Both the position numbers and the translations under genes were made by a program. The notes under the pieces were generated by a model. The model had not been told where the DNA came from. It worked only from the letters and a program-made list of their open reading frames with translations, and did not search any database. DNA of 31,471 bases, from the NCBI GenBank assembly GCA_017936245.1, contig JAGBFY010000305.1:1-31471 (forward strand), written 5' to 3'. Source of the DNA: Kiritimatiellia bacterium. GTDB lineage: Bacteria > Verrucomicrobiota > Kiritimatiellia > RFP12 > UBA1067. This document shows, one piece after another, positions 1,443-25,694 of the stretch (position 1 is its first letter; each line of letters starts with the position of its first letter).

Positions 1443-1474
1443 CGCTTTCACTCGCACGCCGGACATTGTATCAT
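1443..1474 (-). promoter_or_regulatory. Extended -10 promoter/leader module of the DUF4160-DUF2442 operon; 27/32 identical to 835-866
   Basis: Minus strand ATGA-TACAAT-GTCCG-NNN-TGCGAGTGAAAGCG; the TGA is also the integrase stop codon. Confidence 0.6.
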
Positions 1475-2874
1475 AATCCAAGCAGTTTTCGGGCGAGTTC
1501 TTTTCGTTGCTCGTCCGTTAGGTTTGAAATGAGATTGTCTATTGTGGGAGCGGGGGCGGTGACGGTTGGTATCGACACGGGGATTTGTCTGTTGTGGCTT
1601 GTCCCGTCTCCGTCCAATACTGTTCCTGACATATGTCTGCGCATCCGTTCTGCGGCGTGTTTCTTCTCCGGGTTGTAATAGTTTTCCAATGTGGTTTCCG
1701 CTTCTCCATGTCCTACAATTCGCCGGACATCTTCAACCGGGACACCCGCTTTCAGGGCAAACACAACGAATGTGTGCCTGAATGAATGCCAACCGTAGAT
1801 GCTTGCGGCAACCTTGCCTATTCCGCGTTTCTGTCGGTTTTGCTCGATAAGGTCTATGCGGTCAGCCCTCTGCTTCGATATTTTTGCCATCGGGCGCAAT
1901 GTCTGTCCTGTAAGTTTTTCTATATCTCGCAAGTCCATCGAAATTTGGGAGCGAGCAACGTTTAGTTGGGCGGCAATGTCTATGGGACGCTGTCCCGCTT
2001 TGAAACGGGCGTAAACATCCATCAGGCGGCTTTGCTCGCGTTCGGTGAACCCTGAATTGGCGATAACTTCAGAAAGTTCGCGTTGTACTTCCCCTGTTTC
2101 GCTGATTTCTGTTTCAGGCTCGGTGTTTCCGAAAACCGCCCGTGCAAAAAGGGGCTTGACTGCCTGAATTATGTAGTGCTTGTTTCGGGCGTAGTGCGCT
2201 TGTGCATCCGGGAATACATATGGAGACGGCGCGCTACCGTCTCCCGGCACGGGCGCATATTCATTCAGCACATCGCGCAACCTCCCGAAAATCGGAATGG
2301 TGACGCGGACGCCCGCCTTTGCCGTCACGCAATCTATAAGACCGCCCGACAAATCAACATCGCTCCATTTGAGATTGCAGACGTCCCCTATGCGCATGCC
2401 GGTACAGGCGGCGGCAACTACAAGGGGATATATTTTTGTGTCTCGGGCGTATTCAAACATTCGTTCTGTTTCTTCCGCGTTCAATACCTTGCGGGAAGCC
2501 TTCTTGTTTTCGCCGTTTCCACCGCCCCGCAATTGTATTTTCTTCAATGGATTGATTCGCGCCAACCCGTTCGCTTGCAGACGTGTGAAAGTGCCGCTTA
2601 TCAAGTGCTTCATTTTCAGCACAGTTTCCCATGTGTATGTCGTTTTTATGTGGTTGAACCATGCACTCGCGATTTCGGGGGTGACATCGTTCACGGTTTC
2701 GCACCGTTTATGGTGCTTGTTTGCTTCTTTTTGTGCAAATTCGGCAAAGACTCCAAACCAGTTCTTTACCATTTTGCTCCATGCGGATGAAGGGTCTTTG
2801 GCTCTTATTACATTGTTTTTCCATATCTTTGGGGTTGATATATTCGCGTTACTATGGCTATATATGCCCCACAT
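1471..2874 (-). CDS. Tyrosine recombinase/integrase with a large HTH-like insertion; N-terminus possibly truncated
   Basis: TGMRIGD (R161), K186, HSFRHT (H363/R366), VGH (H389), YY (399-400); SAM-like N-terminal helices. Confidence 0.93.
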   Translation of the reverse strand: MWGIYSHSNANISTPKIWKNNVIRAKDPSSAWSKMVKNWFGVFAEFAQKEANKHHKRCETVNDVTPEIASAWFNHIKTTYTWETVLKMKHLISGTFTRLQANGLARINPLKKIQLRGGGNGENKKASRKVLNAEETERMFEYARDTKIYPLVVAAACTGMRIGDVCNLKWSDVDLSGGLIDCVTAKAGVRVTIPIFGRLRDVLNEYAPVPGDGSAPSPYVFPDAQAHYARNKHYIIQAVKPLFARAVFGNTEPETEISETGEVQRELSEVIANSGFTEREQSRLMDVYARFKAGQRPIDIAAQLNVARSQISMDLRDIEKLTGQTLRPMAKISKQRADRIDLIEQNRQKRGIGKVAASIYGWHSFRHTFVVFALKAGVPVEDVRRIVGHGEAETTLENYYNPEKKHAAERMRRHMSGTVLDGDGTSHNRQIPVSIPTVTAPAPTIDNLISNLTDEQRKELARKLLGL

Positions 2875-4141: not shown

Positions 4142-5929
4142 GTGGAAAACCGTAATACAGAAGTTGAACGTCTTGCATGGAAGTTGGCAGACATGGAGAG
4201 GAACTACACATCGTCTCCATGCTTCTCTGCAATTTGTGGTGCCTTTGCAATGTATCTGGCGCAAGATGCGCGCGAAACTACCGACCTTATCGACATCCTA
4301 AAGAAGAACGAAGTCTCCGAATCAGTATTCGCTCTTGTGACGGATCGTATTGCCGATCATTGGGATCGCTATCAGCCACTCCTCACCACATATGCACAGG
4401 CAGATCTCTCCGATTCTATCTTCCTGAACCTTAATCGAGGCTTTATAGAGGGCGGACGGAAAAATGGTTTCTCGTCCTCTATTCCGATTATCGACCTTCT
4501 GCTTAAGACTTTGGCGATTAAGAAAGGCGATTCAGTATGTGACATTGGCTGTGCTGCAGGAGATTTCCTTCGGCGCGCTTATTACAAGGCATTCTCCGAT
4601 AACGAGGAGAATGATTTTTGTGGCATCGAGCGTGCAAAAGATATGGCTGCAATAGCCGAGATTTGCGCATGGTGTCTTGATGCAAAAATAAAGATTCATG
4701 GTGAGGATGCTTTTGCCGAAACCTTTGACGGTATTGGATACGATAAGGTTCTTTGCGATGCACCACTCGCCGTTCGCGGAATGCCACAGGAGCCCAATGT
4801 CCGTCGTTTCTTCCATGCTACATTTCCCGATTTTCCAGAACTTCGCACGGGGATGCAGGGTGATTGGCTCTTTGCCGCTCGCGCTGTTGCCGCGATAAAA
4901 AGGGACGGTCGCGCAGCGGTTGTTCTGTCACCGTCTGCCATGTTCGACAACCGTAACGAGGCATACAGACGGTATTTCATCCAACACGGTCTGATTGAAG
5001 CGGTTATCGAGCTGCCTTCAAATCTCATGATGTCCACCAACATTCCGACATACCTTGTTGTGTTCAGCCACGGCAACGATGTTGTCAAGATGATTCGCGC
5101 AGATGAACTCTGCTACGTCAGTCGCCGCAAAAAGGTTCTAGGGAAGCAGCACATTGATATCATAGCCGCGTGTCTTGGAGTGGAAGCCACTGCGGATACC
5201 AAGGGCTTAGATCGCTATTGCGCAACAGTATCGAGGGATGTCCTCCTCAAAAACGAATGCTCTTTGGCTGTCAAGCAGTACTTCGCCGACCCGGTCGCCA
5301 TCAAGGATGGCATCCCATTCGGCAATTTTGTAACCGATGCGAGACGAGGCGTTCTGCTCACCAGAGACGAGCTAGACCGCATCTTTACAAAATCTGAAAC
5401 GGATTGGCTCTACCTTTCCGTCAAAGACATTTCCGAGGGCGTTATCGGGGGAGACCTCATGTATTTGGGCAACATCCCGGAGCAAATGATTTCGTCCTGT
5501 GTCAAACAAAACGACCTTATCATATCACGTGTGAACGCTAGTGGAGCAGGATTCAAGGTTGCTGTCGCGGAAATCCCCGAAGGCAAGCGACTCGTCCCTT
5601 GCGAAAATGTGCTGATCGTCAGCGTCAACGAGGATGAGGCCGACCCCTATTACCTTAAGGCCTGCCTTGACAACGAATATGCACAGCGTTACCTCGACAA
5701 GCACTCATCTGGATCGGCGATTCGCATTCTCAGTTATCGTGATCTTGAATCACTCCCCGTGCCTAATCTTCCAATCGAGCGTCAGCGGGAAATCGGCCGT
5801 GTCTGCCGCGAAAACGCGCTCAATATCGTCTCGCTGCGAGACCAACTTGCAGCGGCGAAGGCATCTCTCGCTTCCGTGTTTGAGAACGCGGCGGCGGATG
5901 TTCTCGTCAAAAACGGGCAGGAGGGCTGA
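4142..5929 (+). CDS. N-6 DNA methylase-like domain fused to a single HsdS-type target recognition domain; motif IV divergent
   Basis: Motif I VCDIGCAAGDFL. The motif IV position reads DAPL (4757-4768) instead of NPPF/DPPY. GRAAVVL..S and IEAVIELP.NL...T.IPT are HsdM motifs. C-terminal ND.IISR...YL...L.S..AQ.YL......L....L..LPVP.LPIE.Q.EI is a TRD plus coiled coil. Confidence 0.8.
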   Translation: MENRNTEVERLAWKLADMERNYTSSPCFSAICGAFAMYLAQDARETTDLIDILKKNEVSESVFALVTDRIADHWDRYQPLLTTYAQADLSDSIFLNLNRGFIEGGRKNGFSSSIPIIDLLLKTLAIKKGDSVCDIGCAAGDFLRRAYYKAFSDNEENDFCGIERAKDMAAIAEICAWCLDAKIKIHGEDAFAETFDGIGYDKVLCDAPLAVRGMPQEPNVRRFFHATFPDFPELRTGMQGDWLFAARAVAAIKRDGRAAVVLSPSAMFDNRNEAYRRYFIQHGLIEAVIELPSNLMMSTNIPTYLVVFSHGNDVVKMIRADELCYVSRRKKVLGKQHIDIIAACLGVEATADTKGLDRYCATVSRDVLLKNECSLAVKQYFADPVAIKDGIPFGNFVTDARRGVLLTRDELDRIFTKSETDWLYLSVKDISEGVIGGDLMYLGNIPEQMISSCVKQNDLIISRVNASGAGFKVAVAEIPEGKRLVPCENVLIVSVNEDEADPYYLKACLDNEYAQRYLDKHSSGSAIRILSYRDLESLPVPNLPIERQREIGRVCRENALNIVSLRDQLAAAKASLASVFENAAADVLVKNGQEG

Positions 5930-5931
5930 AC

Positions 5932-6471
5932 GTGGCTGTCAGCCCTGATAGAATGGTCGAGATATTCGACCGCGTGAAAGACCGCCTCGAAGACGCCAAC
6001 GAGAACGGGACTCTTCACGAATTGCTATATTTGCTTGGACTTCAGGGTTTAATTGACGAGGATGAGGAAATCGATCTCGGTGAAACCGACAATGCCTACG
6101 GCGACATACTTGTCCTGGGGCGTTGCGACGCCAAAAAGCATCACCTACAGGCTGTAGCCTACGAATGCGGCTACGATAAGAAACGCGTCAAATTCGTGGA
6201 CTACGACGAAATGCAACAATTCGATTGCGCGTCGCTGTGCTACAGTATGCGCTACTCTGCCATAATGTGCGGTCCGGTGCCGCACAAGGCTGGCGACATG
6301 GGTGACACATCAAGCATCCTCGAAGAGTTGCGCCACCCCGAGCGTGGCTATCCACCCCTCGCAGAGCTGCGGGAATCAGGCGGCACAGGAGAATTGCGAA
6401 TAACAAAGACAACATTCAGATCGGCCATTGGCCAGTTGGAATCTATGGGCGCAATCAAGCCCAACAAATGA
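5932..6471 (+). CDS. Conserved hypothetical protein; helical N-terminus plus alpha/beta C-terminal domain (DUF2325/receiver-like, tentative)
   Basis: GTG 2 nt after the upstream stop, with SD GGAGGG; pattern ILVLG...IMCGPVPH...GYPP...ITKT.FR. Confidence 0.7.
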   Translation: MAVSPDRMVEIFDRVKDRLEDANENGTLHELLYLLGLQGLIDEDEEIDLGETDNAYGDILVLGRCDAKKHHLQAVAYECGYDKKRVKFVDYDEMQQFDCASLCYSMRYSAIMCGPVPHKAGDMGDTSSILEELRHPERGYPPLAELRESGGTGELRITKTTFRSAIGQLESMGAIKPNK

Positions 6472-6484
6472 AGGGAATAAAACC

Positions 6485-8881
6485 GTGGCAATCAGAAAGA
6501 ACGATTTGGACAACTCACTGTACAGCCTTTGCGACGAGCTTCGCGGCGGCATGGACCCCAGCCAGTACAAAGACTACGTGCTGACGCTTGTGTTTGTGAA
6601 ATATATCTCCGACCGCTACGCGGGGGTTAAATACGCACCAGTCACGATTCCCGAGGGGTGCTCCTTTGAGGACTTCAAACAACTCAGAAACAAGCCCGAC
6701 ATCGGCGAGAAAATCGACATTGCTCTCGCCAACCTCGCGGAGAACAACCAGATGCTCGCGGGCATGTTCAAGGATGTCCACTTCAACGACGAGACAAAGA
6801 TCGGCAAGGGCGACGAAATGGTCGACAAGCTTACAAGGCTCATCAACATCTTCTGCCGCAGCGAGTTCGACTTCAGCCGGAACAAGGCCTCTGGCGACGA
6901 CATCCTTGGCGACGTCTATGAAAATCTTATGCGCCATTTCGCCGTCGATAGCGGCAAATCCAAGGGGCAGTTCTACACGCCTGCAGAAGCATCGCGAGTC
7001 ATAGCCGGCATTCTGGGGATAAGCGAGATAACGGAGCGCGAGGAAGGATGGTCGATCTACGATGCAGCCTGCGGTTCAGGATCGCTCCTCATCCGCTCGG
7101 CAAACGAGGCGCCATGCCAGGTCGCCATATATGGACAGGAAGAGAACCAGACAACTGCCGGCCTTGCCAAGATGAATATGGTGCTCCACAATCTCCCTAC
7201 TGCGGAGATAAAGGTAGGCAACACGTTCTCCAGTCCGCAGTTTACGCACATTGAGGATGGCGAAGAGGTTCTCGACAAGTTCGACTTCGCCGTTCTCAAT
7301 CCTCCGTTCTCGCTCAAAAACTGGAAGTCCGGATACAAGGACTTCGGGCGGACCGAAGGGTATGGGGCGATGCCGCCAGAGAAGAACGGCGACTATGCAT
7401 GGGTAATGCACGTCCTGAAGTCGCTGAAACGAGAGGGCCGTGCGGCAATCATTCTTCCGCTTGGTGTCCTTTCGCGCGGCAACGCCGAGGAGACGATTCG
7501 CAAGACGCTCATCGACAAGGGTATAGTGGAGGGCGTCATCGCATTCCCGCCCAACATCTTTTTCGGAACCGGCATCGCCGCCTGCGTTATGGTGTTGGCA
7601 AAATCAGGAGCCGAGGAGCGCGAGGGCGTTTTTATGATCGACGCCGCGCGCGACTTCATAAAGGATGGCAACAAGAATCGTTTGCGCGAGCGCGATGTCG
7701 CGAAAATCGTCGCGACCTACCGCAGCCGCCGCGAGGAGACGCATTACTCGCGATTCGTGAAGTGGAACGAAATCAAGGAGAAGAACGGCTACAATCTCAG
7801 CATGTCCCGTTACATTGATTCAGGTGTGCGCGAGGATGTGCAGGATGTCGAAGCTCACCTCAAAGGTGGCATCCCGTCTGCGGACATCGAAGCGTTGTCC
7901 ATTTACTGGGATTCGCTCCCAAACATGCGGCAGGCTCTTTTCAAGCCACTTCGCAAGGGTTACGAAGTGCTCGTCGTGGAACCGCCGCAGGTTCGTGAGA
8001 CCATTCATGCGGAAGCCGCTTTCGCGATGTACTCCGATAGGGTCGACAAGGCGTTTAAGGCCTGGGCGCGCGAGGAAACGCCAGTGTTCTCCGACATCGA
8101 CGCCTATACGGACGCCAAGCACTTCATCGCCGAGCCGGCGCATGTGCTGATGGAGCGCTTCTCCAGCCTCAAGCTCTTTGATCCGTATGATGTCTATGAA
8201 GTGCTGCTAAAGTACTGGACTGACACGATGAACGACGATTTGCACCTTGTCGTTGCGAACGGATGGGAAGCCGGGCGCGAAATCGAGACGTTCTACAAAG
8301 AGACCGAGAACAAGAAGACGAAGCAAATCAAGAAGGTCGAGACTGGCTGGGATGGCCTTCTCATCCCCAGAAAACTCGTTGACGCGAGGTTTTTCAAGGC
8401 AGAGTCAGAGGCTGTTGCAAAGGCCGAGGCCGCGCTCGAAGCGGCAAAGGCAGAACTGGAAGACCTAGCCGCAAGCGGAGAGGCGCAGGACGAAGATTCA
8501 CAGGGAAGTGAAGAAGAAGTTCTGCGCTTCGCAGCTTGCGGCGAAGATCCGGTGCGTCTCCGCGCTTGCGCGGAGGAAAAGCGTAAAGCAGCATCCAAGG
8601 CTCTCAAGGCCGCACAGAAGAAGCTTGAGACCCTGGAAAAGGCGAAATATCCAACGCTCTCAATCGACGAAATCAAGGAACTCGTCGTTGCCGACAAATG
8701 GATTGCTACAGTCCATAGCGGAATAGACGAACTGTTTCGTTCGATTTCAGTTGCGCTCACGGAGCGCGTCTCGACCCTCGCCGAGCGTTACGGCAGCTCG
8801 CTGCCGGAGATCGAGGCGGCTACATCTGCTGCGGAAAAGAGCGTTTCCAGCATTCTTGCAAGAATCGGCTATACGGCATAA
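6485..8881 (+). CDS. hsdM: Type I R-M methyltransferase subunit M
   Basis: CDELRGGMD.SQYKDY, GQFYTP, YDAACGSGSLL, NPPF (7298-7309), Y.W..H. GTG start at 6485 preferred over the ORF-track start at 6428. Confidence 0.96.
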   Translation: MAIRKNDLDNSLYSLCDELRGGMDPSQYKDYVLTLVFVKYISDRYAGVKYAPVTIPEGCSFEDFKQLRNKPDIGEKIDIALANLAENNQMLAGMFKDVHFNDETKIGKGDEMVDKLTRLINIFCRSEFDFSRNKASGDDILGDVYENLMRHFAVDSGKSKGQFYTPAEASRVIAGILGISEITEREEGWSIYDAACGSGSLLIRSANEAPCQVAIYGQEENQTTAGLAKMNMVLHNLPTAEIKVGNTFSSPQFTHIEDGEEVLDKFDFAVLNPPFSLKNWKSGYKDFGRTEGYGAMPPEKNGDYAWVMHVLKSLKREGRAAIILPLGVLSRGNAEETIRKTLIDKGIVEGVIAFPPNIFFGTGIAACVMVLAKSGAEEREGVFMIDAARDFIKDGNKNRLRERDVAKIVATYRSRREETHYSRFVKWNEIKEKNGYNLSMSRYIDSGVREDVQDVEAHLKGGIPSADIEALSIYWDSLPNMRQALFKPLRKGYEVLVVEPPQVRETIHAEAAFAMYSDRVDKAFKAWAREETPVFSDIDAYTDAKHFIAEPAHVLMERFSSLKLFDPYDVYEVLLKYWTDTMNDDLHLVVANGWEAGREIETFYKETENKKTKQIKKVETGWDGLLIPRKLVDARFFKAESEAVAKAEAALEAAKAELEDLAASGEAQDEDSQGSEEEVLRFAACGEDPVRLRACAEEKRKAASKALKAAQKKLETLEKAKYPTLSIDEIKELVVADKWIATVHSGIDELFRSISVALTERVSTLAERYGSSLPEIEAATSAAEKSVSSILARIGYTA
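8464..8576. repeat. Three REP-like hairpin units (family A) in frame inside hsdM
   Basis: CCTAGCCGCAAGCGGAGAGGCGCAGGAC 8464-8491 (+); GTTCTGCGCTTCGCAGCTTGCGGCGAAG 8519-8546 (-); CTCCGCGC-TT-GCGCGGAG 8558-8575. Confidence 0.8.
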
Positions 8882-8894
8882 GGAGGCAATCGTG

Positions 8895-10430
8895 ATGACG
8901 AAAGAAGAGCTGGAGAATCTTCTGCGTGATGTCGAGTCATCTCGCGTGGAGCGTACGATATCGACGGCAGATACCGACAAGTTCTGTGAGGCCGTTTGTG
9001 CATTCGCGAATGACATGCCTGACAGTCGGCAGAACGGATATCTTCTTGTCGGAGTACATGATGATGGAAGCTTGAGCGGTTTAGTGGCAACCGACGCCAT
9101 GGTGAAGAATCTGGCTGCGATTCGTTCTGACGGGAATGTTCTGCCCATTCCGACAATGAATGTAGAGATATTTCATTTTGATTTGGGCGATGTCATCGTC
9201 GTTGAAGTTGTCCCCGCCATATTGCCGCCTGTCAGGTATCGTGGGCGCACGTGGATCAGAGTTGGCGCAAGAAAAGCGATAGCGACGCAAGAAGAGGAGG
9301 ATTTACTCATCGAGCGCAGACGTGCCAGATTCCCTACGTTCGACTCCATGCCATGCCAGCATGCAAAGCTTGAAGACCTAGATCTCGACCTGTTCCGATA
9401 CGGGTTTCTGCCAAAAGCGTTCGACGAGGGAGTGCTTGCCTCGGAAACGCGATCCATCGAGCGTCAACTTGAAGCGCTGTGCTTTTATTCAACGGATTAC
9501 AACTGCCCTACCAATGCGGGGGTGATTCTTTTCGGCAAGAACCTTCTGCGTTTTCTGCCTGGCGATTACATCCAGTTCGTCAGATTTGCAGGGATGACAA
9601 GGGCTACCGACATCGTGAACCAGCAGATGTTCAAAGGATGCCTTATGACCGTTTTGCCGGAGGTTGACACATTCATCAAGACGGCCATCGCAACCAATCG
9701 TCCCGTGCCGGTGACCGTTCTCCGCGAGAAAACCGTCTATGATTATCCGAAATGGTCGATCCGTGAACTGATGATGAACGCCATCATGCACCGCGACTAC
9801 CGCAGTACCGGTCCTACTATGTTCTATCAGTTCGCCGACCGGTTGGAGATCCTCAACTCGGGAGGGCTGTATGGACGTGTCAATCGTGACAACTTCCCCG
9901 ACGAAAACGATTATCGGAACCCGATAATCGCCGATGCAATGCGGACGCTTGGATACGTGAACCGCTTTGGTCGTGGTATAGGACGCGTGAGGGCAGAGCT
10001 TGTTGAAAACGGAAACGGAGAGCCTTTGTTTGATACTACGCAAATTGGTTCGTTCCGTGTCACCGTTTCATGGACTAAGTTTGCATCAGAGGTCAAAAGT
10101 TCGCAGAGAGGCACTGAAAGTTCGCAAAAAACGGCGGAAAGTGCGCAGACAGCCGACGAAAGTTCGCAGACCGTTGCCGAAAGTACGCAGAAAATTGAAC
10201 GGTGGATAGCGAACGCTTTGCCAACAGGGATTCGTTCTGACGCAAGAGCCAATATGGTTGAGGTAATGAAGCTTATTCACGCCAATTCAACAGAGACGGC
10301 TGAGTCTATGGCGGCAAAGATTGGCATCTCAATGCGCGGCGTCCAGAAAATTCTTGCGGCCCTTCAGAAACTAGGCTTGATTGAACGCATAGGACCTGAT
10401 TTTGGCGGACATTGGGAGGTGGTCAAGTGA
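8895..10430 (+). CDS. AlbA_2/Schlafen + HATPase_c_4 + C-terminal winged HTH protein (RecG-C-like ATP-binding regulator)
   Basis: ES.RVERT...VCAFAN....GYLLVGVHDDG; RELMMNAIMHRDY; RNPIIADAM..LGYVNRFGRGI; LIERIGPDFGGHWEV. SD AAGGAGG at 8880-8886. Confidence 0.88.
   Translation: MTKEELENLLRDVESSRVERTISTADTDKFCEAVCAFANDMPDSRQNGYLLVGVHDDGSLSGLVATDAMVKNLAAIRSDGNVLPIPTMNVEIFHFDLGDVIVVEVVPAILPPVRYRGRTWIRVGARKAIATQEEEDLLIERRRARFPTFDSMPCQHAKLEDLDLDLFRYGFLPKAFDEGVLASETRSIERQLEALCFYSTDYNCPTNAGVILFGKNLLRFLPGDYIQFVRFAGMTRATDIVNQQMFKGCLMTVLPEVDTFIKTAIATNRPVPVTVLREKTVYDYPKWSIRELMMNAIMHRDYRSTGPTMFYQFADRLEILNSGGLYGRVNRDNFPDENDYRNPIIADAMRTLGYVNRFGRGIGRVRAELVENGNGEPLFDTTQIGSFRVTVSWTKFASEVKSSQRGTESSQKTAESAQTADESSQTVAESTQKIERWIANALPTGIRSDARANMVEVMKLIHANSTETAESMAAKIGISMRGVQKILAALQKLGLIERIGPDFGGHWEVVK
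10096..10190 (+). repeat. 21-bp imperfect tandem repeat (4.5 units) coding an (E/K)S(S/A/T)Q heptad linker
   Basis: Units start AAAGT(T/G/A)CGCA at 10096, 10117, 10138, 10159 and 10180. Confidence 0.85.
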
Positions 10431-11674
10431 AATCGGCAAAGTTCAAAGATTCGCCCCTCGGCCCCATCCCGCAGGATTGGGAGGTGAAGCGGCTGGGGGA
10501 GATAGGCGAACCACTCATGTGCAAACGAGTCTTGAAGCACCAGACATCAGAACAAGGGGATATTCCTTTCTACAAGATAGGAACTTTCGGCAAAACTCCA
10601 GATGCATATATTACAAGATCACTATTCGAGTCGCTAAGGTCGAAGTATCCATTTCCACGCAAGGGAGATTGTTTGATTTCGGCCGCAGGAACAATTGGCC
10701 GAGTTGTAGTGTACAATGGAGAAGATGCATATTTTCAAGACTCAAACATTGTTTGGATTGACAATGACGAAGCTGTCGTCACAAACGAGTACCTTGCATT
10801 GTGCTATACGCTTATGAAATGGCAATCGGAAGATGGCGGAATCATTAGCCGACTGTACAACGCCAATCTTAAAGCACAAATCATTGTTTGTCCTCCTCTC
10901 CCCGAACAGCAACGTATAGCGGAGGCACTCGGCGAGGTCGACAAACTAATCGAAAGCCTTGACGAGCAGATCGAGAAGAAGCGCCTCATTGCCAAAGGCG
11001 TAGCGCACGACCTCCTCTCCGGCAAAAAACGCCTGCCGGGATTCAAGGGGGCGTGGCGAGAAGTTGCATTTAAAGCCGCATTTATTTCGCTTGGAAATAA
11101 CACTTACGCAAGAGAGTGCCTATGTGGGTATTCGACAAATGCCTACGACATCCATTACGGTGATGTGCTGATTCGCTTTGGGGCGGTTGTGGATTTTTCA
11201 TCCGATTACATTCCACGTCTCAAGGACGGAATAAAGCCAAATAAAGACTTCCTGCAAAATGGCGATATCGTGTTTGCCGATACGGCAGAGGATGAAATGG
11301 TCGGTAAGGCCGTAGAGGTTCGCGGTCTCGGTGATGGTAAGGCGGTCTCAGGCCTTCATACGATGGCCTGTCGTCCACGCGCGGATATGTTCGCCCCAAG
11401 ATTCTTGGGGTATTATCTGAATTCAGATTCTTACCGCAAACAATTGCTACCGCTTATTACTGGTAGCAAAGTTTCTTCTCTGTCACGAGCAAACTTTGAA
11501 AGCAGCATATTGACAATGCCTGATGTAATCGAGCAGCAGGCAATAGCCGACCTTCTCAGCGAGCAGGATGCCGCCATCGCCGCGCTTGAGGAGAAGCGCG
11601 AGAAATACATGCGCATCAAGGAAGGCATGATGCGCGACTTGCTCACTGGCAAAGTGAGGATGAAAGGAGAATGA
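10427..11674 (+). CDS. hsdS: Type I R-M specificity subunit S (two TRDs)
   Basis: FKDSPLGPIP.DWEVK.LGE, PPLPEQQRIA, EQQAIA.LL, K.GMM.DLLTGK.R; GTGA overlap with upstream gene. Confidence 0.95.
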   Translation: MKSAKFKDSPLGPIPQDWEVKRLGEIGEPLMCKRVLKHQTSEQGDIPFYKIGTFGKTPDAYITRSLFESLRSKYPFPRKGDCLISAAGTIGRVVVYNGEDAYFQDSNIVWIDNDEAVVTNEYLALCYTLMKWQSEDGGIISRLYNANLKAQIIVCPPLPEQQRIAEALGEVDKLIESLDEQIEKKRLIAKGVAHDLLSGKKRLPGFKGAWREVAFKAAFISLGNNTYARECLCGYSTNAYDIHYGDVLIRFGAVVDFSSDYIPRLKDGIKPNKDFLQNGDIVFADTAEDEMVGKAVEVRGLGDGKAVSGLHTMACRPRADMFAPRFLGYYLNSDSYRKQLLPLITGSKVSSLSRANFESSILTMPDVIEQQAIADLLSEQDAAIAALEEKREKYMRIKEGMMRDLLTGKVRMKGE

Positions 11675-12774: not shown

Positions 12775-13524
12775 ATGTTACATAATATCCTACATGAGCT
12801 AGCACATGTGGTGACTGTCCTTGACGCGCATCAAGGAAGTTGTATGGTTTTGTTGACTTTTGCACTTGTTGCATGTGGCATTATCTCGTGCTACATAGCC
12901 GCGAGAAACATTAAGTTAATGCGTAAGCTTGAGGCGAACAGGTCAAGTCCGTATGTCGTTATAGAAACAACACATAGTATCCCGTTCTATGGTGTGCGCA
13001 TAGTCAATATGGGGTTGACGACGGCAAGAAATATCACAGTTGAGACAGATCCGAAGGTACATATCGTATTTCCGCGTTACCAGAAACCAATCGGATTTCT
13101 GGATAGTAAGCTTGCTGTACTGGTGCCGCAGAAAGAGTATGCGTGTGATATTGGGAGTTGGGATAACATTAAGAAAGAATGCCCGTCAATGATGTATCGT
13201 TGTATCGTACGATATGAATCGGAGTGGGGCGAGAAGTATGAATCTGAATATGTGTTGGACTATTCGATCTATGAGCATCTTATTCATCGCGAGGAACGAA
13301 CGCTTACAGATTTGACGAAGAAATTCGAAGAGTTCTGTCGAGAGTTTCGACACTTTGCAACTGGACATTATAAGCCGCATGTCTTGACAGAAGATTATGA
13401 TAAATACAATGAGAAGATGGAACAGATGATTAAAGGCTTCAAGGCAAAGAAAAATGATGCCTCTGTGGTCTCGCAATCGCCAGATCAAAGGGATGAAACG
13501 AAAGGAGCGGGTGATGATAAATGA
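12775..13524 (+). CDS. Hypothetical protein with N-terminal transmembrane helix and beta-rich soluble domain
   Basis: Hydrophobic MVLLTFALVACGIISCYIA, then NRSSPYVV...IVNMGLTTARNI; AT-richer than flanks. Confidence 0.7.
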   Translation: MLHNILHELAHVVTVLDAHQGSCMVLLTFALVACGIISCYIAARNIKLMRKLEANRSSPYVVIETTHSIPFYGVRIVNMGLTTARNITVETDPKVHIVFPRYQKPIGFLDSKLAVLVPQKEYACDIGSWDNIKKECPSMMYRCIVRYESEWGEKYESEYVLDYSIYEHLIHREERTLTDLTKKFEEFCREFRHFATGHYKPHVLTEDYDKYNEKMEQMIKGFKAKKNDASVVSQSPDQRDETKGAGDDK

Positions 13525-14143
13525 TAATGACATCAAACTAGTGTTGGGAAGAAACAGCTTTGGCCTTTTGTCGCAAGAAGACGACCCGTGGATTCGGTAT
13601 TCATTTGATATCCTTTTGGATGAGGAGGATGGCCCGGGGCAGATTGTCGGCAGTATGCAAGCATCTAAGCTAAGTTACGGGGAGATGTCTCGGCGCAAAT
13701 TAGCATTATGGATGGCGTTTGACGATTTTTCAATGGAGGCATCAGAGTGTTATGATGTATTATTTACCAAGAAAGGCAATCTTCGAAAGGCGTTTTGGCA
13801 CCAGTATTATGGACTGGAGGAATATTTCGCCAGGGATTTTCATTTCCTTGAACGGATCGAGGTGAATGAGAATTTCAAGGGCAACGGCATCTCGGGGATT
13901 GCTACTCGGATCTATCTTGAGAATTTTGCGAATTCTGACGATGTGGCTTATTTGAAAACGTTCCCCCTACAACATGAGAGTCGGTTCGGTGATAAACCTT
14001 ATAATCGCGAGTTTAGGGGTGACTTCAAGGCGAGTCAAGCGAAGCTTTGTAGATATTACGCACATCTTGGATTTCGCCGAATTGGCAAGACGGAGCATTT
14101 CTTCTTCGTTGTTGATCATTTTTTGTCGCACAGGAAGGATTGA
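13514..14143 (+). CDS. GNAT-family acetyltransferase-like protein
   Basis: FLERIEV...FKGNGI (motif A) and KL..YY..LGF (motif B); SD AAGGAG at 13502-13507. Confidence 0.7.
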   Translation: MINDNDIKLVLGRNSFGLLSQEDDPWIRYSFDILLDEEDGPGQIVGSMQASKLSYGEMSRRKLALWMAFDDFSMEASECYDVLFTKKGNLRKAFWHQYYGLEEYFARDFHFLERIEVNENFKGNGISGIATRIYLENFANSDDVAYLKTFPLQHESRFGDKPYNREFRGDFKASQAKLCRYYAHLGFRRIGKTEHFFFVVDHFLSHRKD

Positions 14144-14151
14144 TGTAAGCC

Positions 14152-15519
14152 ATGACCGGTGAGCAGAAAAACGCATTCAAGCAAGAGGTCACGCACCGCA
14201 TGGGGCGGCGGCTGAACGGCTGGGATTATGCCGGGCGCGGCATATACATGATTACCATCACCATTGAGGGTCGCAGGCCTCTCTTGGGGCGGCTCGTGAA
14301 GATTGGTGGTGAGTGGTCGGTTGAGCTGAGCGCGGCGGGTTGCATTGTGCAAGATTGCCTTGCCGAGATTCCTATGCAGTGGCCCGGCGTGTCGTTGATT
14401 GCCGTGCAGCTGATGCCGGATCATCTGCATTTCATAATCTTCGTTGAGCGTCAGCAACAGAAGCCTCTGGGGGCGATAGTGGGCAGCCTAAAGGCGAAAA
14501 GCACTTCGAGATATTTGGCCGCGCAAGACCTGGCCGCAAGCGCCAAGGCGCAGAACGGGGCGAAGTTCTGGGCGCAAGGCTATGTGGATCTGGTGCTTCT
14601 CAGGCGCGGGCAGCTTGAAAAGATGATTGCCTACCTGCGCGACAACCCGCGGCGGCTTGGGGTAAAGCGCGAGCATCCCGATCTGTTCAAGGTGTTGCGC
14701 GATGTTGAGGCGAAGGGCATGCATTTTAGCGCCATCGGTAATCATTTTCTCCTTGCAGCGCCGGTGATATTCCAGGTTCAGTGCTCGCGCTCGTCTTTCG
14801 CCTGCCGCCGCGAGAGGCTAGATACTTCGCCGCAAGCGGCGAAGCGCAGAATCGAGCTGCAAGCGCCAAGGCGCAGTACTTGGCGAATACTGCGCGATGC
14901 GCAGTGCAGGCCACTTGTTGAGAAGATCACGCCTGAATTTGAGGCAAAGGCAACTGCCGCACTTGAGGCCGCGAAGCGTGGTGCGGTGCTTATATCACCC
15001 TGCATCAGCCACGGTGAGCGTGAAATCGCGCGGCGGGCATTTGAGGCTGGTTATCGTATCATCACCCTCCAGAACAAGGGCTTCTCACCGATATACAAGC
15101 CGGGAGGGAAACTCTTCGACAAATGCGCGGCGGGTAATTTGCTGATACTTGCGCCGATCAACTGGCCATACATCCCAGGTGAGAAGCCGCCTACGCGCGA
15201 ATCATCGCTTGTATTAAACCGCATCGCGCAGTTCCTTGCTGGCGAAGGCGCAGCTGAAATTGACTACAAGGGCGCGACAATGCGCGGCATCGACGACATG
15301 GTGAAGCACCTTTGCGCGAAAGGCCTGGCCGCAAGCGGCCAGGCGCAGAACCAAGTGCAGAACAGCGCAAACGGCCAGTCGCAGAACAGCGCCTGCACCA
15401 AGGCGCAGAACGAGTCGCAGAACAGCGCAAGCGCCAAGAAGCAGCCCAAGAACGCAAACAACAAAGCGCAGTACTGCGCTTCGCCGTGTGCGGCGAAGAA
15501 TCAAGGAAAAGAACTATGA
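14152..15519 (+). CDS. REP-associated tyrosine (Y1/HUH) transposase fused to a DprA/Smf (SLOG)-like domain, with a repeat-derived tail
   Basis: RL.GWDY...G.YMITI, MPDHLHF (HUH), FW..GY.D, YLRDNP (catalytic Tyr). C-terminal half AIGN.FLL...QVQCSR...GAVLISPCIS.GE..IAR.A......GF...YKP.G..FD.CA.G.LLILAP. Confidence 0.85.
   Translation: MTGEQKNAFKQEVTHRMGRRLNGWDYAGRGIYMITITIEGRRPLLGRLVKIGGEWSVELSAAGCIVQDCLAEIPMQWPGVSLIAVQLMPDHLHFIIFVERQQQKPLGAIVGSLKAKSTSRYLAAQDLAASAKAQNGAKFWAQGYVDLVLLRRGQLEKMIAYLRDNPRRLGVKREHPDLFKVLRDVEAKGMHFSAIGNHFLLAAPVIFQVQCSRSSFACRRERLDTSPQAAKRRIELQAPRRSTWRILRDAQCRPLVEKITPEFEAKATAALEAAKRGAVLISPCISHGEREIARRAFEAGYRIITLQNKGFSPIYKPGGKLFDKCAAGNLLILAPINWPYIPGEKPPTRESSLVLNRIAQFLAGEGAAEIDYKGATMRGIDDMVKHLCAKGLAASGQAQNQVQNSANGQSQNSACTKAQNESQNSASAKKQPKNANNKAQYCASPCAAKNQGKEL
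14529..14556 (+). repeat. REP family A unit inside the RAYT catalytic domain
   Basis: CCTGGCCGCAAGCGCCAAGGCGCAGAAC, in frame (LAASAKAQN). Confidence 0.8.
14825..14879 (+). repeat. REP family A unit plus partial tandem copy inside the RAYT C-terminal domain
   Basis: CTTCGCCGC-AA-GCGGCGAAG-CGCAGAAT (perfect 9-bp stem), then GCTGCAAGCGCCAAGGCGCAGTAC. Confidence 0.85.
15324..15498. repeat. REP family A pair enclosing degenerate GCAGAAC tandem repeats at the RAYT 3' end
   Basis: CCTGGCCGC-AA-GCGGCCAGG-CGCAGAAC 15324-15351 (+); GTACTGCGCTTCGCCGTGTGCGGCGAAG 15471-15498 (-); 18-bp perfect palindrome AAGCGCAGTACTGCGCTT 15464-15481. Confidence 0.85.
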
Positions 15520-18500
15520 AAGACACTACAACCCCAATTGGCGCACCGGAACTTGCAACGCAGGCCCGGCTCATCGAGATGTTCGAGCAAGATCTCGGTT
15601 ATGAGTTCCTCGGCAACAAGACAGATGAGGATAACTCCAACATCATTCCCGAACTTCTCAGGGCGAATCTCCTTAACCGAAAAGATAGTGAAGGGAAGCC
15701 GCTATATTCGAAACGTCTTGCGGACGCGGCGATCGTGAAGCTTCAGTCGGAAGCGAAGGACCTCTCATCGGGGCTTTATGCTGCGAACAAGGCCGTCTAT
15801 TCTATCCTGAAATACGGTGCCAAAGTTCAGGACGAGAAAGGCGCAATAAAGACGGTCATGCTTATCGATTGGGATGAAGTCGGTAATAATGATTACCAGA
15901 TAGCAGAGGAAGTGACGGTCGCTGGGCTATATGACAAGAGACCCGATCTCGTCATCTATGTGAACGGCATTGCGCTCGGCCTTGTCGAACTCAAGCGCGC
16001 GAGCGTGTCGGTTGTCAAGGGAATCGCCCAGAACATCGCCAATCACACGAAGGAGATGTTCATCATGCCGTTCTTCACGACGATGCAGCTTCTCACGGCT
16101 GGCAACAACAGCGAGGGGTTGAGATACGGCACGATTGGCACTCCGGCGAAAAAGTATCTCGAATGGAGGCACGATGGATTTGGCCAGCATCCTGATGAAC
16201 GCGATCCTGTTGACGTGCTAATCGAGTCAAAAGCGGCGAAATTCGAGGAGAAGCTCGATTCGCAAGCGTATGAGATGTTCTCGCCGAGCCGCTTCCTGGG
16301 CCTCATACGCAACTTCACGATATTCGACCGGGGCAAGAAGAAGGTTGCCCGCTACAGTCAGTATTACGGCATCAAACGCACCCTTGCGCGTACGGCAAAG
16401 CACGAGGGTGGAATCGTATGGCATTCGCAGGGTTCCGGCAAGTCTATCGAGATGGTGCTTCTCGCCAAGCACGTCATCGAGCGCGATCACGACGGACGCG
16501 TTCTTATCGTCACGGACCGCGAAGAACTCGACGAACAGATCGAAAAGCTATTCATCGGTGTTGACGAGAAGATTCGTCGCACAAAGAGCGGTAAAGATCT
16601 GATTGACGCCATCAACGACACGGCGGGCGGCAATCTCATATGCTCGCTCATCCACAAATTCGGCAAGCATTCTGGCAAAACGGACGAATCCGAGGACAAG
16701 CTCGATGAAGAGGCTGTAGCCAAGTACATCGAGGAACTCAAGGTGGCGCTTCCAGCCGGATTCAAGGTCAAGGGCAATTTCACTATTTTCGTCGATGAAT
16801 GCCATCGCACACAGTCCGGTCTTTTGCATCAGGCGATGAAGGCAATCATGCCGGACGCCATTCTTGTCGGCTATACGGGCACGCCGCTCTTGAAGAAGGA
16901 CAAGAAGACGTCGATGGAGGTGTTCGGCCCTTATATTCACACCTACAAGTTTCCAGAGGCCGTGCGTGACGGAGTGGTTCTCGATCTTCGCTATGAAGCG
17001 CGCGACATCCCGCAGGATGTTACCGCCAAGAAGGAAATTGATGCTTGGTTCGAGGCAAAGACCGCAGGGCTTACTGACAGGGCAAAGGCGCGCCTGAAGG
17101 AGAAATGGGCTACGATGCAGAATGTCGTATCCTCCAAGTCGCGTCTCGGAAAGATTGTCGAGGATATCATTCTCGACTTCGCCACGAAGCCACGCCTCAT
17201 GAACGGCTCTGGCAACGCGATGCTCGTCGCGGATGATATCCTCACCGCCTGCAAGTTCTACAACCTATTCCACGAGCACGAGTTCAAGGGGTGTGCAGTC
17301 ATTTCTTCGTATGTTCCTGCGCCAAGCGACATCTCTACCTCGGTGGTCGATCCAGAACACCGGACGGATGAGGAGGTCTAGTACGGCACCTACTGCAAGA
17401 TGATTGGCGTCAAGCCGGGCGAAGATGTAAAGTCAATAGCCAAGAAGGTCGAGAACTTCGAGAAGGAGGCGAAGCGTCAGTTCGTGGATGAGCCGGCCAA
17501 CATGAAGCTTCTCATCGTCGTGGACAAGCTTCTGACTGGATTCGACGCGCCGCCTTGCACATATCTTTACCTTGATAAGCACATGCAGGATCATGGGCTC
17601 TTCCAGGCGATCTGCCGCGTAAATAGACTTGACGACGAGACCAAGGACTTCGGCTATATAGTGGATTACCGCAAGCTCTTTGGAGATTTACAGGATTCCC
17701 TTGCGATGTACTCAAGCGACAAGGCGTTCGCCGGGTACGATGCGGAGGATGTGGATGGCTTCGTCAAGAATGTCGTCAAGGAATCAAGCGAGCGCTTCAA
17801 AACAATCCTCGCCGCACTTGACGCACTCTGCGAGGGTGTCGAGTCTCCCGCACAGGGGCCGCAGTACCGCGCGTATTTCGGCTGCCAGGGCGCGGACACG
17901 CCCGAGGAGGAGACGCAATACGGACAGAGGCGCGAGAAGCTCTACCGACTCGTCGGCGCACTTGTACGCGCGTATGCCGTGTTCGCTCCTCGCATGGAGA
18001 GCGCCAAGGTGCCGCAAGCCGACAGGGATTTCTACGCTGCCCGCGTGAAGTTCTATCTCGAGCTTCGCAACGACATCGGCCAGGCGAGTGGTGATTTCCT
18101 CGACCTCAAGCCCTACGAGCCAGATATGCGTTATCTCATCGACACATACATTGCCGCCGGCGAGAGTGAACGCTTGACCACACTCGAGAACTTCTCCCTT
18201 TTGGACTTCATTGATGATAAATCAAATGGCAACGAGTCTGAGTTCATGTCAAAGGAGGAGCAGGACAATGTCGCCGAGACGATAGAGAATAACGCGGCGA
18301 AAGAACTCGTCCACAAGAGGCTCATGAACCCTGCGTTCTTCGAGCGCATGTCTGTAGTCCTCAAGAAACTCATTGAAGACCGCAAGGCTGGCGTGATCGA
18401 ATACAAGAAGCTCCTTGAAGAATACAAAAAACTTGCGGAGGAGATCAAGAATCCATCCGTATCGGGGCGCTATCCTGCATCCATTGCCGGATCGCCCGTC

Positions 18501-18701
18501 AAGGAGGCGCTCTACGACAACTTTGGCGAGGACGAGAAGCTGACACTTGCCCTGCACAAGGCGTTTCTTGGCTCCAAGCTGCAAGGCTTCAAGTACAACA
18601 TCGCCAAGCAGAACCAGATCAAGAGCGCGCTTTTCGCCGTTCTCAAGGATGACGACAAGGTTGAAGCCGTGTATAAGATACTTGAAGCACAGGAGGCGTA
18701 G
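15516..18701 (+). pseudogene. hsdR: Type I R-M restriction subunit R with one in-frame TAG (17379-17381)
   Basis: RPDLVIYVNGI.LG.VELK, WHSQGSGKS, VDECHR, GYTGTP, IVVDKLLTGFDAP, QAICRVNR. ORFs 15312..17381 and 17400..18701 are in the same frame, separated only by the TAG. ATGA overlap with RAYT. Confidence 0.92.
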
Positions 18702-18705
18702 GGAA

Positions 18706-19437
18706 GTGGAACTGAAAGTCGGAGACGTGCCTGTTGCGGTTCGCCGAAAGGCAATCAAGCACATGCATCTGTATGTAGAACCGCCTGACGGCAGTGTTCT
18801 CGTCAGCGCACCCAAAGAGGCGTCTGACGAGGAGGTGCTGTTTTTCGTGCGGGAGAACTTCGGCTGGGTTCTGCGGCAACGCAACGGAATGCTTGCGCAG
18901 CGACGCCAGCCGCCGCGCAAGTACACCTCCGGCGAAACCCACTACCTCTGGGGCGAACAGTATTTTCTTGAACTCGTCAAACAGGACGGCTGGGGTGGAA
19001 TTAAGATTTCCGGCAATACGCTGACCATGCTTGCGCTGCTGGAATCGACAGAGAAGTCACGTCGCGATTACATGACGGAGTGGGAGCGCTCGCTCCTTTC
19101 AGATGCGGTAAACCGCACCTTGCCGCTCTGGGAGAAGAGGACTGGACTGAATGTCCAACGATTCTCCATCATGAATATGAGGCGAAGCTGGGGTAAATGC
19201 AACCCCAAAAAGGAGAGCGTTATCTTCAATCTCCAGCTTGTCCGAAAGCCGAAGGAAGCGCTCAACTACATAATCCTGCACGAGCTTTGCCACCTCAAGA
19301 CCCGCACACACGGCAAAGAGTTTATCGCGCTTATGGATCGCTTCATGCCCGACTGGCGCGAAGTTCGCAAGCGCCTCAATGATTCACCACTTGATTACGT
19401 GAGCGGCGAGAAATCAAAAGATGGAGAGGCAACCTGA
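18706..19437 (+). CDS. M48/YgjP (DUF45, SprT-like) zinc metallopeptidase typical of type I R-M loci
   Basis: RKAIKHMHLYV.PPDG.V.VSAP, MRRSWG.CN, YIILHELCHL...HG..F...MD..MP.WR; GTG start at 18706. Confidence 0.9.
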   Translation: MELKVGDVPVAVRRKAIKHMHLYVEPPDGSVLVSAPKEASDEEVLFFVRENFGWVLRQRNGMLAQRRQPPRKYTSGETHYLWGEQYFLELVKQDGWGGIKISGNTLTMLALLESTEKSRRDYMTEWERSLLSDAVNRTLPLWEKRTGLNVQRFSIMNMRRSWGKCNPKKESVIFNLQLVRKPKEALNYIILHELCHLKTRTHGKEFIALMDRFMPDWREVRKRLNDSPLDYVSGEKSKDGEAT

Positions 19438-19528: not shown

Positions 19529-19794
19529 ATGGCATACTCTATAGACAGTCTTGAAGTTGCGGACAATCCGATTGTGCTGTTCAGGGGCATCGTCGGAAGC
19601 CGGGCATACGGAACGCAGAACGCGAGCAGCGACACGGACGTTCGCGGAATCTTCGTAGTGCCTTCCGCCGAGTATGCGAGGCTTGTCCAGCCGCCGAGAC
19701 AGGTCTCAGACGAGCGAAACGACAGAACGTATTGTTCGCTTGTTCGATTCTGCGAGCTGATATCCGAGGCGAACCCGACAACGATGGAGAATCT
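19529..19794 (+). pseudogene. Pol-beta superfamily nucleotidyltransferase (RlaP/Nuc-transf-like), truncated
   Basis: GIVGSRAYGTQN.SSD.DVRGIF (GS...DxD motif)...ANPTTME.L, then switches to repeat-derived sequence. Confidence 0.8.
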
Positions 19795-19933
19795 GGGGAC
19801 ATACCCTTCAAGAAGAGTGGGAAAATCAAGGGACACACCCTTTGAGAAGGTTGGATAAGTTAAAAAGAGTGGGTGGATATTTGATTAATTGGATGATTTC
19901 TGTTGATTCTTGTGGGGACAGACCCTTCAAGAA
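19795..19933 (+). repeat. Three ~20-bp direct repeats GGGGACA(T/C/G)ACCCTT(C/T)(A/G)AGAA
   Basis: Copies at 19795-19814, 19829-19848 and 19914-19933. Confidence 0.8.
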
Positions 19934-20064: not shown

Positions 20065-20144
20065 GAGAATCAGTCCAAACCGTGTTCTCATTGATTCACC
20101 GTCTCATCAAAAGCAAGAGAATCGTTCCGAAGTGAATTCTCATT
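20065..20144. repeat. Two 28-bp direct repeats (21/28 identical), each with GAGAA...TTCTC inverted ends
   Basis: 20065-20092 and 20117-20144. Confidence 0.6.
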
Positions 20145-20147
20145 TTG

Positions 20148-20185
20148 GGCAACAGGTCGGACGCATGCAATGCGTCCGTCAGGAC
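20148..20185. repeat. REP-like element family B, copy 1
   Basis: GGCAAC-A-GGTC-GGACGCAT-GCA-ATGCGTCC-GTCAGGAC; 37/38 identical to 25657-25694. Confidence 0.85.
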
Positions 20186-25634: not shown

Positions 25635-25656
25635 TATGTAATGTGAATGTTTTTGA

Positions 25657-25694
25657 GGCAACTGGTCGGACGCATGCAATGCGTCCGTCAGGAC
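25657..25694. repeat. REP-like element family B, copy 2
   Basis: GGCAAC-T-GGTC-GGACGCAT-GCA-ATGCGTCC-GTCAGGAC, 23 nt after the DUF4886 stop. Confidence 0.85.

Follow-up and report, generated by a model that had tools for sequence, protein, structure and literature searches.

What is a transposase-type gene doing between the specificity and restriction genes of a type I restriction-modification (R-M) operon? The question is raised by a stretch of 31,471 nucleotides (contig JAGBFY010000305.1, positions 1 to 31,471; hereafter the window) from the Kiritimatiellia bacterium assembly GCA_017936245.1, a 3.54-Mb metagenome-assembled genome (MAG) of 630 contigs which is 76% complete. The gene, P0001, specifies a protein in which a HUH/Tyr domain of the kind found in REP-associated tyrosine transposases (RAYTs; REP, repetitive extragenic palindrome) is joined to a second domain with the predicted fold of DprA, and both the gene and its operon contain short hairpin units. 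RAYTs, of which E. coli YafM is the type, are the textbook domesticated bacterial transposases whose benefit to the host remains unknown. On balance we consider it somewhat probable that P0001 is a domesticated RAYT equipped with a fold for binding single-stranded DNA (ssDNA), long resident in mobile methylation-based defence operons and acting locally upon its own hairpins. The gene is made up as follows.

14152–15519, plus strand: RAYT–DprA-like fusion gene (P0001, 455 aa), an open reading frame (ORF) with its translation and approximately 2000 full-length homologues
14152–14706, plus strand: N-terminal Y1 HUH domain, aa 1–185, recognized through Pfam PF01797, NCBIfam NF047646 (below its cut-off), alignment with ISDra2 TnpA and invariant residues
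14707–15336, plus strand: DprA-like (SLOG superfamily) Rossmannoid domain, aa 186–395, predicted from an AlphaFold2 (AF2) model, structural Z scores and Foldseek
15337–15516, plus strand: Q/N/A/S-rich tail of GCGCAGAAC-type repeat remnants, with a predicted local distance difference test score (pLDDT) below 50; variable or absent in homologues

The N-terminal domain scores 28.8 bits against Pfam Y1_Tnp (PF01797; cut-off 23), and its closest solved structure by sequence is ISDra2 TnpA (E 5e-4). The HUH motif is H91/H93 (nt 14422–14430, within MPDHLHFII), and the catalytic tyrosine is Y161 (14632–14634), followed four residues later by N165 (14644–14646) in the motif AYLRDNP. A first-pass annotation of this DNA, made from the letters alone, had reported intact HUH and Tyr motifs, and these are borne out: H91, H93, Y161, N165 and P166 are invariant among 25 homologues, the most distant being about 61% identical to the query. 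Y-x-x-x-N-P is the class-2 form in the table of Quentin et al. (PMC6006769). P0001 would be a class-2 TnpA_Y1 enzyme of the RAYT type, in which H91, H93 and N165 presumably hold the metal and Y161 acts as nucleophile.

An ordinary insertion sequence (IS) was rejected for this gene. The IS200/IS605 TnpA enzymes (ISDra2, PDB 2XM3/2XO6) provide the best sequence match among solved structures and share the HUH/Tyr chemistry on ssDNA hairpins; unlike them P0001 has no tnpB, no flanking IS ends or subterminal end hairpins and no copies, and is three times longer. The lack of IS features had been noticed in the first pass, and the immediate neighbours are indeed a 209-aa gene and hsdR. A single copy, with neither recent duplicates nor IS ends, is what characterizes a RAYT. 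P0001 further shares with RAYT/TnpA_REP proteins (PMC6006769, PMC5581495) the HUH plus Y-x-x-x-N-P core and a tie to short GC hairpins with a conserved foot; its cognate hairpin family lies in and beside the gene, and its distant relatives are REPtron-like. It differs from RAYTs in scoring under the NCBIfam cut-off, in its DprA-like C-terminal domain, and in lying within R-M or BREX operons. Where the REPs of RAYTs are extragenic and genome-wide, the hairpins of P0001 stay within the operon and are read through as in-frame protein sequence.

The tie to REPs is most direct in two distant two-domain paralogues (L040 and L042, in the related genomes G015 and G021), which are flanked by the hairpin TGCGACCAC-NNN-GTGGTCGCA. 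This sequence is present in 56 copies throughout G015 and 13 throughout G021, often as doublets 130–180 bp apart, while a control pattern gave 0. The fusion family thus includes true REP-associated members.

What does the second domain add? An alignment of 66 sequences covering aa 186–400 gave an AF2 model with a pLDDT of 88.6 and a predicted TM-score of 0.85; a full-length model built with 25 sequences (pLDDT 53.8) was not used for fold claims. The ten best Foldseek matches of the domain in the PDB are ShosA and DprA, with a probability of about 1. VIA-align superimposes it upon ShosA with a Z of 10.8 (145 residues, root-mean-square deviation 4.3) and upon the DprA proteins of H. pylori, S. 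pneumoniae and R. palustris with Z values of 8.9–10.1. In an exhaustive pass through 48,161 representative PDB chains ShosA and these three DprAs were the sole chains at Z≥8. A second tier (Z 4.4–5.4) comprises the MoCo (molybdenum cofactor) carrier protein, LOG proteins and YpsA of the SLOG superfamily, and the domain has the fold of that superfamily. Cluster matches in the AlphaFold Database are first “Transposase IS200-like” proteins with the same domain, then Smf/DprA; the earlier guess that similar fusions exist elsewhere under a transposase label was correct.

Sequence searches with the same domain gave no family match in Pfam or NCBIfam, PF02481 (DNA_processg_A) being absent even at an E of 10, no signal in a PDB profile search, and only sub-threshold leads in a feature search of the ESM Atlas. 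In the source genome PF02481 finds the housekeeping DprA only, which is encoded separately from P0001. The likeness to DprA and ShosA (PDB 4LJK, 3UQZ, 3MAJ, 8ZVA) is thus one of Rossmannoid fold, over 128–145 residues; compared with DprA, P0001 is without the SAM and C-terminal DprA domains and without profile-profile similarity, and has an additional beta-hairpin insert (aa ~205–260). Since there is a fold match without a sequence match, the DprA/SLOG call of the first-pass annotation is right at the level of the fold (Z 8.9–10.8), although the domain falls outside PF02481.

Both ShosA, a DprA-like antitoxin, and DprA bind ssDNA, as demonstrated for ShosA by electrophoretic mobility-shift assay (PMC11961720). 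Judged by these fold relatives the domain most likely grips ssDNA as well; loading of RecA, or sensing of a nucleotide, we would infer from the fold only. A SLOG-type domain which senses a nucleotide signal and gates the nuclease, rather than binding DNA, seems highly improbable to us. The second-tier folds (LOG, YpsA and the MoCo carrier) do bind nucleotides, and TIR and SIR2 genes are among the cargo of some related loci; against this, the DprA/ShosA tier stands at least 3.5 Z units above the LOG tier, and such cargo is missing from most loci, that of P0001 included.

Upon what, then, would the enzyme act? The candidate substrates are units of 27–28 nt consisting of an 8-bp GC stem, a short loop and a GCGCAG(A/T)A(C/T) tail. 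The P0001 gene contains four in the forward and one in the reverse orientation, and hsdM an inverted pair of the same units.

14529–14556, plus strand: hairpin and tail unit, reading DLAASAKAQN, at hot spot 1 between the HUH and Tyr motifs
14825–14852, plus strand: hairpin and tail unit with a perfect 8-bp stem, read in another phase as TSPQAAKRRI, at hot spot 3
14852–14879, plus strand: degenerate unit adjoining that at 14825–14852, reading IELQAPRRST
15324–15351, plus strand: hairpin and tail unit, reading GLAASGQAQN; its perfect stem is longer than any other at a GCGCAG[AT]A tail of the genome
15465–15505, minus strand: reverse-oriented unit, reading KAQYCASPCAAKNQG, which ends 10 nt before the hsdR start codon
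8464–8546: inverted unit pair in the 3' third of hsdM, reading DLAASGEAQD and VLRFAACGED

Across the 3.54-Mb assembly the composite of hairpin and GCGCAGAAC motif is confined to the contig of P0001, and among perfect stems which directly precede a GCGCAG[AT]A tail, the three longest all belong to the P0001 gene. A related pattern was sought in five other genomes with such loci; four have matches, and all seven matches fall within the locus. Neither in the source genome nor in these five genomes does the unit motif form a dispersed, extragenic set of the REP kind. Six R-M loci together hold 25 perfect-stem units, of which 18 are in the Y1 gene, five in hsdR, two in hsdM and none in cargo genes or intergenic DNA; 19 of the 25 follow the coding strand. 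In the window the units are in frame within the P0001 gene and hsdM, and in relatives also within hsdR and YgjP.

A repeat at the level of the peptide was considered and rejected. One and the same unit is translated, according to phase and strand, as LAASxxAQN, SPQAAKRR, LGRTRPSAE, YCASPCAAKN or VLRFAACGE, and is therefore a nucleic-acid element. Its stems differ in a compensatory manner between copies (TTCGCCGC/GCGGCGAA, TTGGGCGC/GCGCCCAA and CTGGCCGC/GCGGCCAG). In the protein alignment the units cluster at five hot spots (after aa 120, 185, 222 and 340, plus the C-terminal tail), mostly corresponding to low-confidence stretches of the AF2 models.

The units are also polymorphic. In hsdR some relatives have an in-frame unit at a loop site where others have none. 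The block at 8456–8584 in hsdM is replaced by 84 unrelated nt in contigs of two other metagenomes, a length difference of 45 nt which keeps the frame, and the tail of P0001 has a 60-nt in-frame deletion (15357–15416) in the contig of a related strain. Isolated units with identical flanks are found at unlinked sites in hsdR and YgjP. One further candidate, a joint from 14312 to 15501 in an RNA-library contig, with an ATG in between and most of the P0001 gene lost, was set aside as unreliable; the likeness is 90% and the shorter side comprises only 41 nt, so that it may come from another organism.

It might be argued that P0001 is enzymatically idle, and that the repeats are just low-complexity DNA, prone to slippage and with no relation to the protein. 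Tandem 24-nt arrays and the 60-nt difference in copy number are compatible with slippage, but the catalytic residues have been kept in all of the aligned homologues, the units occur in both orientations and three phases with covarying stems, isolated copies sit at the unlinked hsdR and YgjP sites, and in the genomes searched the units co-occur with the P0001 family and are found nowhere else. We regard an idle protein as very unlikely.

In the domesticated-RAYT explanation the 27–28-nt units, each an 8-bp GC hairpin with GCGCAG(A/G)AC behind it, would be the substrates, and we infer that the enzyme nicks and rejoins them in ssDNA, acting in cis, with the DprA-like domain most likely holding the strand. 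Units would be copied or deleted over short distances only. Copies would therefore accumulate in the gene of the enzyme itself and in those genes that have long resided in the operon, surviving only as in-frame insertions in loops.

Short palindromic elements in frame within protein-coding genes have a precedent in Rickettsia, whose elements are tolerated in surface loops. Those are genome-wide and are not known to have a linked transposase; the units described here are limited to one operon, which encodes the presumed enzyme.

The remaining features of the island are the following.

1471–2874, minus strand: tyrosine integrase, then a DUF2924 gene, forming the left border of the island
6428–8881, plus strand: hsdM
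10412–11674, plus strand: hsdS
13514–14143, plus strand: 209-aa cargo gene directly upstream of the P0001 gene, with no family match; 90% identical in the relative L021
15516–18701, plus strand: hsdR, translationally coupled to the P0001 gene, with an in-frame TAG at 17379–17381
18547–19437, plus strand: gene for a YgjP-like metallopeptidase, found after hsdR at every related locus

The order of the island is hsdM, a Schlafen/AlbA_2-HATPase gene, hsdS, a DUF2806/Abi_alpha gene, two family-less genes, the RAYT–DprA-like gene, hsdR and the YgjP-like gene. With an integrase to the left, and pyruvate formate-lyase followed by its activase to the right, the R-M locus lies on an integrative island. 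The P0001 ATG at 14152 is located 8 nt past the stop of the upstream ORF (likely start, 13514; end, 14143), the spacing given in the first pass, and is preceded by a Shine-Dalgarno-like run AGGAAGGA at 14131–14138; the GNAT label attached to that ORF has no support in Pfam or NCBIfam. The overlap with hsdR reported at the same time holds, the TGA of P0001 (15517–15519) and the ATG of hsdR (15516–15518) forming ATGA, preceded by AAGGA, likewise a Shine-Dalgarno-like run. P0001 is on the operon strand between hsdS and hsdR and coupled to the latter, as is conserved in relatives, and the two genes apparently form one operon.

A representative library clustered at 50% identity holds 261 homologues at E<1e-30. 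Where the host is named, it is a Kiritimatiellia, Victivallales or “Verrucomicrobia UBA” MAG, in many cases from the ruminant gut, and 14 studies of animal gut and faecal metagenomes contain near-identical DNA. P0001 is matched in 34 of 41 related genomes (the source genome included), mostly by several divergent paralogues and never by near-identical copies. The source genome has the single copy and two distant paralogues (≤25% identity), while paralogues in relatives are 30–57% identical to P0001.

A neighbourhood survey, suggested with the first-pass annotation, took in 44 family members with context. In a clade of 17 (SH-aLRT, the approximate likelihood-ratio branch test, 98), 12 genes lie directly 5' of hsdR, through ATGA overlaps or gaps of 1–18 nt, with YgjP next and then usually RadC; the contexts of the close clade are therefore neither random nor IS-like. 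The five exceptions are a Victivallales trio beside PFOR (pyruvate:ferredoxin oxidoreductase) and GH39 (glycoside hydrolase family 39), and others beside GH123 or family-less genes. Outside the clade, L080 (sister clade) precedes a distinct hsdR and has SIR2 cargo, L026 follows hsdS, and L025 (G020:C131, 4409–14116; 47% identity) is flanked by the pglX and pglZ genes of a BREX operon, with a 1-base overlap with pglZ. The last has a 43-nt hairpin family of its own, with one copy in pglX (5474–5516) and two in its own gene (8061–8103 and 8312–8354). The remaining members sampled have glycoside hydrolases or further housekeeping genes as neighbours. Defence loci are thus not the only setting of the wider family.

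Other accessory genes are lodged in type I R-M operons, an example being prrC between hsd genes, and these specify effectors triggered by anti-restriction. P0001 resembles them in its position between hsdS and hsdR and its co-expression with the hsd genes, and differs in being a transposase-type DNA enzyme without a defence family match. Might it nevertheless be a working accessory of methylation-based defence? Co-expressed with HsdR or PglZ, it would bind and cut single-stranded invader DNA (ssDNA phages, or conjugative and transforming strands, which restriction dependent upon double-stranded DNA does not see) or else tune expression of the effector through the hairpin which ends just before the hsdR start. 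The embedding recurs in separate lineages (the 12 of 17 in the type I clade, L080, the hsdS-adjacent L026 and the pglX–Y1–pglZ arrangement of L025), in each case in the same direction as the operon and closely coupled to the gene that follows. Y1 and hsdR have remained linked down to identities of about 60% and 42%, respectively, the catalytic residues have been kept, an RNA-library contig bridges their junction, and ShosA, the nearest fold, is part of a defence system.

On the other side, no family in PADLOC-DB matches P0001, and RAYT-type enzymes are specific for their own hairpins, a poor fit with broad recognition of invaders. Many relatives occur among glycoside hydrolases or beside PFOR. 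In the window itself hsdR is split into 621 and 439 codons by its one amber codon, where L021 (98% identical) has AAG and all aligned homologues keep Lys; hsdM, hsdS and the RAYT-like gene are intact despite it. We view such an accessory as a tentative possibility. Much the same doubt attaches to the related proposal that RAYT–DprA proteins are dedicated components of type I R-M and BREX operons, which would use hairpins within the operon as cis sites and handle ssDNA through the DprA-like domain, whether to attack invading single strands or to reshape and regulate the operon. That such genes repeatedly stand coupled in front of HsdR or PglZ is a hint of a contribution to defence or to cassette exchange. 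The first-pass suggestion of a candidate core of a diversification or defence system is not supported so far: many members lie beside glycoside hydrolases, and the distant ones behave as ordinary RAYTs.

Cassette exchange deserves separate comment. DprA is known for loading RecA, and one could picture nicks at the hairpins yielding ssDNA which the DprA-like domain passes to RecA, so that hsdS and cargo cassettes are exchanged between the hsdM and hsdR flanks. From hsdS to the Y1 gene each locus has cargo of its own (DUF2806/Abi, RhuM, TIR, KAP/YobI NTPases, SIR2) while the Y1–hsdR–YgjP block is constant, and units in the 3' part of hsdM and in the Y1 gene bracket the variable segment, as do those of pglX and Y1 in the BREX locus. 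Against such an engine, the identity breakpoints between the window and its closest relative, L021, are inside hsdS and cargo, away from the units, being attributable to ordinary homologous recombination that swaps hsdS target-recognition domains, and no unit-to-unit excision junction was present in the contigs searched. We think it unlikely. In the explanation preferred here, a domesticated RAYT acting on its own hairpins, the P0001 gene would be present in one copy and would long have been a passenger on a type I R-M island that is itself horizontally mobile.

Several observations weigh against that explanation. The NCBIfam RAYT equivalog REP_Tyr_transpos (NF047646) matches aa 30–171 with 48.2 bits, below its cut-off of 80. 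The DprA link of the C-terminal domain comes entirely from predicted structure, and hhalign of the domain against 15 local DprA domains returned a probability of 0.8%. Given the completeness and number of contigs of the source genome, dispersed copies of the unit might be unassembled, and the tandem 24-nt arrays could arise by replication slippage without an enzyme. Lastly, three kinds of operon keep the gene at a conserved place ahead of their effector genes, a hint of some function which a passenger would not have.

In some TnpA_Y1 subclasses Quentin et al. (PMC6006769) recorded C-terminal domains that are large and unassigned, as well as occasional REP insertions within tnpA genes. Neither they nor Bertels et al. 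2017 (PMC5581495) mention DprA or connect RAYTs with restriction operons. In the searchable literature we found nothing on a RAYT or other HUH enzyme with DprA or SLOG, no identification of a RAYT C-terminal domain as DprA-like, and no report of a RAYT with R-M, in R-M or BREX operons, or of operon-confined translated units. The DprA-like, predicted ssDNA-binding fold, the coupled position before an effector gene and the translated REP-like units kept within the operon offer three handles on the host benefit of RAYTs. If the enzyme acts on these units, the locus would provide a compact, testable model of REP movement by RAYTs, because a handful of sites adjoin the gene, and would also show mobile hairpins remodelling proteins. 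If a contribution to defence were true, an ssDNA-directed activity would join systems thought to act on duplex DNA only; and were the dedicated-component proposal true, domesticated HUH transposases would have a new functional class, one at work in bacterial immunity.

A few further features of the window may be recorded. The head of the operon (4142–6471) specifies a second methyltransferase, fused to a specificity domain (595 aa), for which the best PADLOC match is mad2 (E 1e-18), and a 179-aa partner; the pair is also found upstream of hsdM in relatives (L021 and the P0036 locus). Past the R-M island, and again past a downstream gene, there is a 43-nt repeat with a perfect hairpin (GGACGCATGCAATGCGTCC), in two copies of 93% identity (20143–20185 and 25652–25694), unrelated to the units of the operon. 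The motif TGGGGACAnACCCTTCAAGAA, of 21 nt, occurs three times at 19794–19933, in the intergenic DNA that separates YgjP from pyruvate formate-lyase. Within its 3' part, the Schlafen/AlbA_2 gene contains about five copies of a 21-nt tandem repeat (10087–10194), to which one metagenome contig adds a further copy after 10115.

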